IMG/VR virus record: IMGVR_UViG_2541047442_000018
DNA length: 6,941 bases
Reading direction: 5' to 3' (one strand)
Source of the DNA: a virus
Lineage: Duplodnaviria > Heunggongvirae > Uroviricota > Caudoviricetes
Position numbers and translations under genes: made by a program. The notes beneath the pieces were generated by a model that saw nothing but the letters and a program-made list of their open reading frames with translations, searched no databases and was not told the origin of the DNA. Below, piece after piece: positions 6,062 through 6,897 of the stretch (position 1 is the first letter of the stretch; every line of letters begins with the position of its first letter).

Positions 6062-6085
6062 CCGATATGGGAATTCCCATATCGG
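6062..6085. other. perfect 24-bp palindrome CCGATATGGGAATTCCCATATCGG, function unknown
   Basis: Seen in sequence: fully self-complementary over 24 bp. It lies between the AcfC terminator and the hok leader, about 46 bp upstream of the inferred hok mRNA 5' end. No T-run follows on either strand. The sequence is certain; the function is not. Confidence 0.5.
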
Positions 6086-6130
6086 GCGAAAACGGTTTGC
6101 TGTAACGGCAGAGTTAAGTAGGATTGCTGC

Positions 6131-6220
6131 GGGTGCTTGAGGCTATCTGCCTCGGGCATGAACACCAACGGCAGATAGATAAAAGCCCCACCCGACTATA
6201 AATCGAAGTGAGGCCCCTAT
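6131..6220 (+). promoter_or_regulatory. hok mRNA 5' leader with tac/ucb-like alternative hairpins
   Basis: Seen in sequence: the leader begins GGGTGCTTGAGG (6131..6142), which is complementary to a 3' segment at 6483..6495. Overlapping alternative pairings are GAGGC/GCCTC (6138..6152) and ATCTGCC/GGCAGAT (6144..6176). Recall: this matches the plasmid R1 hok leader architecture, with compensatory base changes. Confidence 0.5.
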
Positions 6221-6228
6221 ATGCTCGT
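6180..6228 (-). ncRNA. sok: sok-like antisense RNA (approximate boundaries)
   Basis: Seen in sequence: minus-strand -35 TTGACC (complement of 6259..6264). Minus-strand hairpin GCCTCAC / GTGGGGC (complement of 6209..6215 and 6185..6191) followed by a T-run (complement of 6181..6184). The transcript would be antisense to the upstream SD (GTGAGG 6208..6213) and ATG 6221. The -10 is poor and the ends are not determinable by eye. Confidence 0.35.
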
Positions 6229-6277
6229 CACATATAGATTGCCTCTTACGGACCGAAAGGTCAAGGAGAAGCAGGCT

Positions 6278-6433
6278 ATGAAGCAGCAAAAGGCGATGTT
6301 AATCGCCCTGATCGTCATCTGTTTAATCGTCATAGTGACGGCACTGGTAACGAGGAAAGACCTCTGCGAGGTACGAATCCGAACCGGCCAGACGGAGGTC
6401 GCTGTCTTCGTAGACTACGAATCTGAGAAGTAA
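6278..6433 (+). CDS. hok: Hok/Gef-family type I toxin (51 aa membrane peptide)
   Basis: Seen in sequence: SD AAGGAG (6263..6268), ATG 6278, product MKQQKAMLIALIVICLIVIVTALVTRKDLCEVRIRTGQTEVAVFVDYESEK with one transmembrane helix and the conserved TRKDLCE motif. Recall: near-identical to E. coli HokD/HokC. The ORF-track start at 6221 is an in-frame upstream ATG in the mok position. Confidence 0.9.
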   Translation: MKQQKAMLIALIVICLIVIVTALVTRKDLCEVRIRTGQTEVAVFVDYESEK

Positions 6434-6552: not shown

Positions 6553-6897
6553 ATGAAAAAGGTATTGATTGCAGCACTTATTTCTGGTGTGTCTTTTGGC
6601 GCTTTTGCACAGCAGGGCGGTTTCCAAGGGCCTGAAGCAGAGCGTTCAACAGTAGCGCAGGCAAAAGAACTGAAGGATGATGCATGGGTTATCCTTGAAG
6701 GGAGCATCGTTAAAAAAGTGGGTGATGAACGTTATGAGTTTCGTGACAATAGCGGGACAATTGTCACGGATATCGATGACAGCATATGGGCCGGTCAGAA
6801 TGTTTCTCCGAAAGACAAAGTAAGAATTGAGGGTGAAATTGATAAAGACCTGAGCAGTGTTGAAGTGGATGTAAAGGCACTGAAATTATTAAAGTAA
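6553..6897 (+). CDS. YgiW/YdeI (BOF, bacterial OB-fold) family periplasmic protein (114 aa)
   Basis: Seen in sequence: SD GAGGA (6542..6546), ATG 6553, signal peptide MKKVLIAALISGVSFGAFA. Recall: the mature part (QQGGFQGP...DDAWVILEGSIVKKVGDERYEFRDNSGTIVTDIDDSIW...KDKVRIEGEIDKDLSSVEVDVKAL) matches the YgiW/VisP/YdeI pattern closely. Confidence 0.9.
   Translation: MKKVLIAALISGVSFGAFAQQGGFQGPEAERSTVAQAKELKDDAWVILEGSIVKKVGDERYEFRDNSGTIVTDIDDSIWAGQNVSPKDKVRIEGEIDKDLSSVEVDVKALKLLK

Follow-up and report, generated by a model that had tools for sequence, protein, structure and literature searches.

The window analysed here, the whole 6,941-nt stretch of the viral record IMGVR_UViG_2541047442_000018 (Caudoviricetes), is a segment of a lambdoid prophage of the type found in E. 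coli O157:H7 and its relatives (the 'PPompW' prophage). An immunity region, a YdaT-like gene, replication genes and a DUF1627 gene occupy its left part, followed by a fimbrial pseudogene, paa, a hok/sok module and a BOF/YgiW-like gene. The features surrounding the palindrome that is the subject of this analysis are as follows.

5184-5942, plus strand: paa, an AcfC-family adhesin with the SBP_bac_11 fold (Pfam match)
5949-5962: terminator-like hairpin followed by a T-run, just 3' of paa, the only such site near the palindrome
6047/6048: mosaic junction between the paa cargo module (left) and the relic and hok module (right), the latter common to prophages without paa (O104:H4 type)
6048-6088, minus strand: relic of a KilA-N gene, ~40 nt, corresponding to about codons 57-70 of a 257-aa homologue
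6062-6085, either strand: palindrome CCGATATGGGAATTCCCATATCGG, perfect over 24 bp, read from the sequence
6096-6124, plus strand: likely hok promoter (-35 TTTGCT at 6096-6101, 17-nt spacer, -10 TAGGAT at 6119-6124)
6131-6280, plus strand: hok mRNA 5' leader and sok antisense region (Rfam RF01794, 103.9 bits)
6221-6433, plus strand: mok reading frame, 70 aa
6279-6433, plus strand: hok toxin coding sequence, 51 aa, inside mok
6553-6897: BOF/YgiW-like gene

Homology of the window with the O157 PPompW prophages and with all complete E. coli genomes of the collection ends at ~6505, and a BOF/YgiW-like gene adjoining this hok was not found in those prophages or in that genome collection. In the prophage copy of O157:H7 strain PV15-279 (L001, 2653-3865), IS1203 splits a replication gene; IS1203 is absent from the window at ~2400-2900. 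A second perfect inverted repeat, ATGTTGATTACA-AAAA-TGTAATCAACAT (12-nt arms, 4-nt spacer), lies at 4992-5019 in an AT-rich region ~165 nt upstream of the paa start; it is not followed by a T-run and could be an operator or a remnant. Just past the paa terminator, at 5966-6002, TTTTCCGGATGCCGCGCCAGCGGCATGTAGGGGC resembles an E. coli REP/PU element.

The original prediction described a perfect 24-bp palindrome that was very unlikely to arise by chance, was not a terminator and was possibly prone to form a cruciform, and our analysis agrees on all of these points. The two arms (6062-6073 and 6074-6085) are 100% complementary with a spacer of 0 nt. When the window was shuffled 300 times, no perfect palindrome had arms longer than 10 nt, compared with 12 nt in the real window, and CCGATATGGGAATTCCCATATCGG occurred in 0 of 200 shuffles; the window itself holds a single copy, even with 3 mismatches tolerated. 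Half-sites and additional copies within the window did not exceed chance: there were 5 half-site matches against 1.6 expected, and 3 of these 5 are the palindrome itself. The sequence TGATATGGGAA at 4654-4664 is a half-site with one mismatch, at chance level. For a 54-nt RNA stretch containing the palindrome, the predicted folding energy was -24.1 kcal/mol on the plus strand (z = -5.2) and -20.7 kcal/mol on the minus strand (z = -4.0), and a 38-nt DNA stretch was predicted to fold with -10 kcal/mol.

Several simple identities were rejected. The palindrome is followed by GCGAAAACGG on the plus strand and by AATGAATTCAG on the minus strand, and because there is no T-run on either strand, the hairpin is not an intrinsic terminator. 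An Rfam 15 scan of the whole window (E-value mode) returned sok and one chance snoRNA match elsewhere, with none over 6040-6100; a known RNA family was thus ruled out, the nearest match being sok, downstream. A small protein encoded across the palindrome was also rejected: the 86-aa minus-strand ORF at 5908-6168 is in a different frame from the codons described below, and the frame of those codons is closed by stops.

The likely hok promoter was read from the sequence and is kept across 46 upstream contexts; a consensus scan did not call it. Relative to the predicted 5' end of the hok mRNA (~6131), the palindrome ends ~45 nt before and is centred at about -57.5, and the gap between the palindrome and the likely -35 hexamer is ~10-11 nt. 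The palindrome therefore falls wholly outside the hok/sok RNA model (6131-6280, against a palindrome end of 6085). Compared with described type I hok/sok loci (plasmid R1 parB; chromosomal hokA-E; RF01794), it stands directly upstream of an apparently intact hok/mok/sok, but it is not part of the RNA model and is missing from most hok loci. It is not known to correspond to any hok element described so far (tac, fbi, sokT, ucb/dcb).

Matches to the 101 nt around the palindrome came from 737 of the 5426 complete E. coli genomes, usually three matches per genome, whereas hok-like sequence was present in ~4700. For an unbiased sample, 80 prophage hok loci were collected by Hok protein search, and the hok 5' motif was located in 75 of them. 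These 75 loci represent 46 distinct upstream contexts, 9 of which contain the palindrome. In the commonest upstream context, marked by a 27-aa ORF with CRWG as its last residues, the same -35 and -10 hexamers recur but the palindrome is missing. Among viral contigs, the unit of palindrome plus hok was found in four different upstream contexts, and the palindrome and the -35 hexamer are separated by either 11 or 33 nt, depending on the relic. No regulator gene was co-inherited with the palindrome, and the neighbouring genes vary on both sides. Judging from these loci, the palindrome is dispensable for hok/sok expression. In many prophages, hok is directly preceded by a small hydrophobic ORF, of 34 aa (ending in VYCLVVFLMDRL) or 27 aa (MTWPEAFTTVGIAMAVALVVYSICRWG); these ORFs were seen at L002 2906-3010 and in L218-L297.

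An E. coli O104:H4 prophage that lacks paa carries the same palindrome ahead of the same hok promoter. Homology between the window and this prophage begins at 6048 (GAACTGAATTCATT...), 14 nt to the left of the palindrome, which bears out the earlier suggestion that the palindrome lies by a cargo junction. As for a recombination site, the junction is 14 nt away, there is no adjacent recombinase gene, and no second copy of the palindrome bounds the paa cargo. As with gene remnants on the module boundaries of other mosaic lambdoid prophages (morons and their junctions), a cargo block (here the fimbrial pseudogene and paa) adjoins a conserved module within a few bases of the relic, an arrangement typical of mosaic phages; however, the remnant in the window forms an exact palindrome, and its preservation far exceeds that of ordinary junction debris.

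What the earlier reading missed is the identity of the palindrome, which is the coding sequence of a KilA-N motif, S-D-M-G-I-P-I-S-E. On either strand, its codons read (x)CC GAT ATG GGA ATT CCC ATA TCG G and encode D-M-G-I-P-I-S; since the palindrome is self-complementary, the same peptide is encoded on both strands (20-mer core). We used the 18-mer core to scan public viral and genome collections, and the matches were hok-linked copies, KilA-N ORFs and orphans. There were many matches, in unrelated phyla, and most lay inside ORFs with the codons GAT ATG GGA ATT CCC ATA TC. The surrounding motif in these ORFs, ...(F/Y)LxxLSxDMGIPISxLIxxxKG...QGTWVHP..., is that of the KilA-N domain, and a 257-aa E. 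coli prophage homologue matched the Pfam KilA-N family (PF04383) with E = 4e-27. Within KilA-N genes (for example, WP_000200358.1 and that of phage vB_EcoS-613R10), the 24-mer corresponds to the most conserved motif, (S)DMGIPIS(E). We take this motif to sit at the turn of the helix-turn-helix.

Intact KilA-N genes were found directly upstream of hok, on the opposite strand, in phage vB_EcoS-613R10 (L298) and in E. coli strain 7/2 (L517), with the order DUF1627-DUF977-...-[KilA-N]-hok. In O104:H4-type prophages (L002) and in the window, the same slot holds the palindrome relic only. Window positions 6052-6084 align with 94% identity to positions 3090-3122 of L298, which fall within the intact KilA-N coding sequence and are collinear with hok. 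To the left of the palindrome, 24 nt were compared with the reverse complement of the codons for ISELIQSFKG; identity was 19/24 in L234, 18/24 in L247 and 17/24 in L146 (binomial p from 4e-8 to 3e-6). A relic in the sense orientation was rejected, as flank identity was then just 6-10/24. The left flank of the window itself scores 12/24 in an ungapped comparison, because of an extra 3-nt deletion there.

On the minus strand of the window, the frame reads SPDMGIPISE-stop-IQ and comprises 18 codons between stops (LCRYSKPFSPDMGIPISE followed by a stop); ~14 KilA-N codons remain in the window. With stops closing this frame, it cannot yield a protein. A TBLASTN analysis of the window gave no significant KilA-N match past the motif, and a complete KilA-N domain (~100 aa) is not present in any open frame of the window. 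The relic thus shares with intact KilA-N genes the slot, the orientation relative to hok and homology in the flank beyond the palindrome, but with ~14 codons bounded by stops it is a fragment of a family member and not a member. Together, the flank homology, the matching slot and orientation, and the disrupted frame identify a gene remnant. We have high confidence in the KilA-N origin of the palindrome and moderate confidence that it lacks a present function.

Relics differ among hok-linked loci. On the right, a longer type has some four additional degenerate codons; the type in the window lacks ~22 nt there, and the missing segment is bounded by GGG, which suggests a microhomology deletion. 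Three of the 9 palindrome-bearing hok upstream sequences are imperfect. Two of these (L261 and L272) have a 1-nt deletion in the left arm, with hok intact. The third, L234, reads CCAATGTGGGA-A-TCCCACATCGG; it has lost one central base and has acquired symmetric substitutions, A>G in one arm and T>C in the other (ATAT>ATGT and ATAT>ACAT). Overall, the palindrome is better kept than its flanks in the relics.

The codons GGA, CCC, ATA and TCG are rare in E. coli. Since the palindrome uses rare codons, we examined constraint on it in living KilA-N genes. A codon-degenerate scan (GAYATGGGNATHCCNATHTC) identified only three variants in KilA-N ORFs, all differing by ≤1 base from the palindrome; other codon mixes occurred in unrelated contexts. 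In 17 distinct KilA-N proteins obtained by a protein-level search, D is encoded by GAT, P by CCC and I by ATA in 17/17 cases each, whereas synonymous sites of the other invariant residues in the same proteins are near saturation. A metagenome sample centred on a distant (Chloroflexi-type) KilA-N member yielded alternative palindromes. The forms recorded for KilA-N genes are given below by peptide motif.

DIGIPIS: GATATCGGAATTCCGATATC, a perfect palindrome
ETGIPVS: GAAACGGGAATTCCCGTTTC and GAAACCGGAATTCCGGTTTC, perfect palindromes
VMGIPIT: GTTATGGGAATTCCCATAAC, a perfect palindrome
DMGYPIS: GATATGGGATATCCCATATC, an alternative perfect palindrome
VTGFPVT: GTTACGGGATTTCCCGTAAC, with all pairs kept except the central one

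Palindromes with a central GGG/ATC or GGT/ATA are also present in KilA-N genes. The palindromic KilA-N genes are those of loci L357-L516, on viral and metagenome contigs. A second KilA-N lineage was observed at L518 2223-3729 (E. coli G1/2); it is 78% identical and carries the GGG variant of the palindrome. This gene lies directly downstream of a LexA-family (CI-like) prophage repressor, on the same strand, unlike the hok-linked context. The palindrome is missing from more distant KilA-N genes, namely those of phage D3 (orf11), HK544, and Moraxella and Klebsiella phages; in KilA-N genes at intermediate distance, the outer arms are kept. A full-text literature search for KilA-N together with a palindrome, and for the sequence itself, found nothing.

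Covariation between the arms was tested in a codon-anchored alignment of 61 sequences, with 500 shuffles. In this alignment, 84% of cells are paired, and changes on both sides were found at 8 of the 12 pairs. Compensatory cells numbered 52, compared with 14.6 ± 3.0 in the shuffles, none of which (0/500) reached the observed value; the covariation score was 0.223 vs 0.075, and it was ≤0.056 with the partner slid. At position 0/21, where both bases are third-codon positions, a C-G pair is present in 52/61 sequences, and the usual element is therefore 22 bp long, sometimes up to 28 bp. Some compensatory changes alter amino acids, such that residues on the two arms co-vary.

Codon rarity, or translational pausing, leaves the compensatory switches unexplained (ATG/CCC to ATC/CCG, and GGA/ATT to GGG/ATC or GGT/ATA). 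G.U pairs are almost absent from the stem, with 7 at the innermost pair; by our own count from the alignment, the A.C combination (GGA/ATC) occurs at that pair in ~7 sequences. Since G.U is about as frequent as A.C, there is no sense-strand asymmetry, which points to DNA and not to the sense RNA; selection at the RNA level is accordingly not favoured. Autoregulatory operator arrays near intact KilA-N genes were ruled out, as neither full nor half sites were found there beyond the palindrome itself.

Beyond hok, the 18-mer loci include 56 distinct contexts without HMM-detectable KilA-N homology. The exact KilA-N 22-mer CGATATGGGAATTCCCATATCG is present in 32 of these 56 orphan contexts, against well under four by chance. 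Across 596 Gb, the 18-mer was observed 95 times compared with ~9 expected, and the expectation for the 22-mer is ~0.03 by our own arithmetic; these counts rule out a chance origin of the matches. With 32 of 56 orphans carrying the exact 22-mer, it follows that the palindrome often persists after its gene is lost, and the copy linked to hok belongs to a broader class of orphans. Examples among the orphan loci (L003-L217) include Buttiauxella (L029), Xenorhabdus (L036 and L051), Nitrosospira (L037), and L099 and L124. Some orphan 22-mers lie in frame within long ORFs of unrelated proteins.

Based on these comparisons, the palindrome in the window is probably the fossil core of a KilA-N gene antisense to hok, dispensable and without a present role. 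A KilA-N gene would once have separated hok from the replication genes, running in the antisense direction relative to hok, and deletions and module exchange would have removed the remainder of it. On the right side, the relic was probably fused to the hok promoter through GGG microhomology; on the left, different modules (paa here, the 34-aa ORF elsewhere) would have been joined 14 nt from the palindrome. The palindrome may still be perfect in part since the copies are young and in part since its arms may be mutually corrected by template switching during replication. In living KilA-N genes, either template switching or selection on the hairpin would keep the stretch palindromic.

Template switching keeps inverted repeats perfect; it has been documented in E. 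coli and proposed to conserve such repeats over evolutionary time (PMC5941160), and correction of quasipalindromes by template switching has also been described (PMC7202029). Like the template-switched inverted repeats of these studies, the palindrome has perfect arms, symmetric double changes (in L234), compensatory changes and no obvious function. Arms that evolve in concert, as template switching predicts, were seen in the symmetric changes of L234 and in the alignment of intact genes (8/12 pairs; 52 compensatory cells vs 14.6). However, the evolutionary analysis in PMC5941160 concerned mainly non-coding repeats in Proteobacteria, whereas here the repeat is a protein motif, occurs in several phyla and has co-varying residues on its arms. 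The covariation in living genes could equally reflect template switching filtered by protein selection, or selection that acts on a structure of the DNA or on a binding site. Gene remnants are an ordinary sight at mosaic junctions; a palindrome that is kept by compensation and outlives its gene is an unusual variant of conserved inverted repeats.

Some observations count against reading the palindrome as a fossil: it is better kept than the flanks of the relics, the symmetric substitutions in L234 fit selection on pairing as well as template switching, the relic has accompanied hok into no fewer than four upstream contexts, and in intact genes the palindrome is clearly constrained at the nucleotide level.

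Among the other explanations, one is that the palindrome is a hotspot of recombination or deletion, at which a hairpin stalls replication and draws breakpoints to the palindrome edges. The right edge of the window-type relic abuts the hok promoter, the left junction is only 14 nt away, the longer relic type differs by the ~22 nt bounded by GGG, and many orphans retain little beyond the 22-mer, all of which would fit such a process. However, the hok-linked relics may share one ancestral relic, in which case their end points would not be separate events; the breaks in partial KilA-N genes at other loci are scattered and do not fall at the palindrome; and no recombinase or att-like arms are evident. 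We consider a hotspot unlikely as the explanation, although the idea is compatible with, and not opposed to, a fossil origin.

Because the palindrome is constrained at the nucleotide level in intact genes, an orphan copy may retain a function of its own. The palindrome of 20-28 bp would then be a functional element of KilA-N genes, and orphans such as the one near hok would stay active, which we regard as quite unlikely. Such an element could act as a hairpin or cruciform in the DNA, or as a binding site encoded by the helix-turn-helix that recognises it, and compensatory changes may then dictate the residues of the motif (DMGIPIS, ETGIPVS, VTGFPVT, DIGIPIS). An orphan would, for instance, couple hok expression or local DNA transactions to the KilA-N proteins of co-resident prophages upon induction. 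That the copy in the window is an inherited element still recognised, e.g., by a structure-specific enzyme or by KilA-N proteins that co-resident prophages supply, is in our judgment decidedly unlikely. The nucleotide-level constraint and covariation in intact genes, the exact 22-mer in 32/56 non-hok orphan contexts, and a core that is better kept than its flanks are consistent with recognition; however, template switching can yield all of these patterns without function (PMC5941160), some relics are decaying, and the absence of extra sites near intact KilA-N genes is contrary to what an autoregulatory operator predicts. In addition, intact close copies of this KilA-N gene were found in 137 of 5426 E. 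coli genomes, compared with 737 genomes with the relic, and the trans partner is therefore usually missing, at least among close relatives.

The palindrome might instead have been exapted as a hairpin, with a stem-loop in read-through RNA from the upstream genes that blocks 3' exonucleases, makes RNA polymerase pause or shields the hok transcript from transcription arriving from upstream. The predicted fold is strong on both strands, the palindrome lies 20-120 nt past the stop codon of the upstream gene in all four contexts, and the L234 variant retains its stem despite its changes. A role of this kind is nevertheless very unlikely, given that there is no U-tract, that paa has a terminator-like site of its own at 5949-5962, that most hok loci do without the hairpin, and that the near absence of G.U pairs in intact genes argues against RNA-level constraint at the source.

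The original prediction favoured an operator for a dimeric regulator, and the perfect dyad, with its centre 57.5 nt before the predicted start (a class-I-like position) and kept upstream of hok in hundreds of genomes, resembles one; yet an operator acting on the hok promoter is extremely improbable, because at most hok loci the same promoter occurs without the palindrome, a result that, under the refuting condition of the original prediction, shows the palindrome not to be needed for hok, and because its spacing to the -35 hexamer varies, while one relic has an altered half-site spacing through loss of the central base, no regulator gene travels with it, the window has no second site, and a coding origin already explains the sequence. 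The recurrence upstream of other genes that had been proposed as a check did not materialise, as no match of the 18-mer core in the viral and genome collections scanned lies at the promoter of another gene. Like the dyad operators of CRP, LexA and phage CI/Cro, the palindrome has two-fold symmetry near a promoter, but it lacks fixed spacing, recurrence at other promoters and a cognate regulator. To our knowledge, it matches no operator consensus.

With the palindrome read as the debris of a neighbouring KilA-N gene, hok in the window has the appearance of a standard prophage hok/sok module, and the tempting but unsupported reading of the palindrome as a regulator of hok is removed for this locus. 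The comparison also places the right end of the paa virulence cargo at the 6047/6048 junction. Where the KilA-N gene is intact, the symmetry of the DNA is tied to the protein sequence, through frozen synonymous sites and arm-matched replacements. If template switching is the cause, these genes would be a clear natural example of a mutational process that shapes a protein motif and of a sequence that outlives its gene; if selection is the cause, the palindrome would be a cis-element, so far undescribed, within a phage gene family of very wide distribution.
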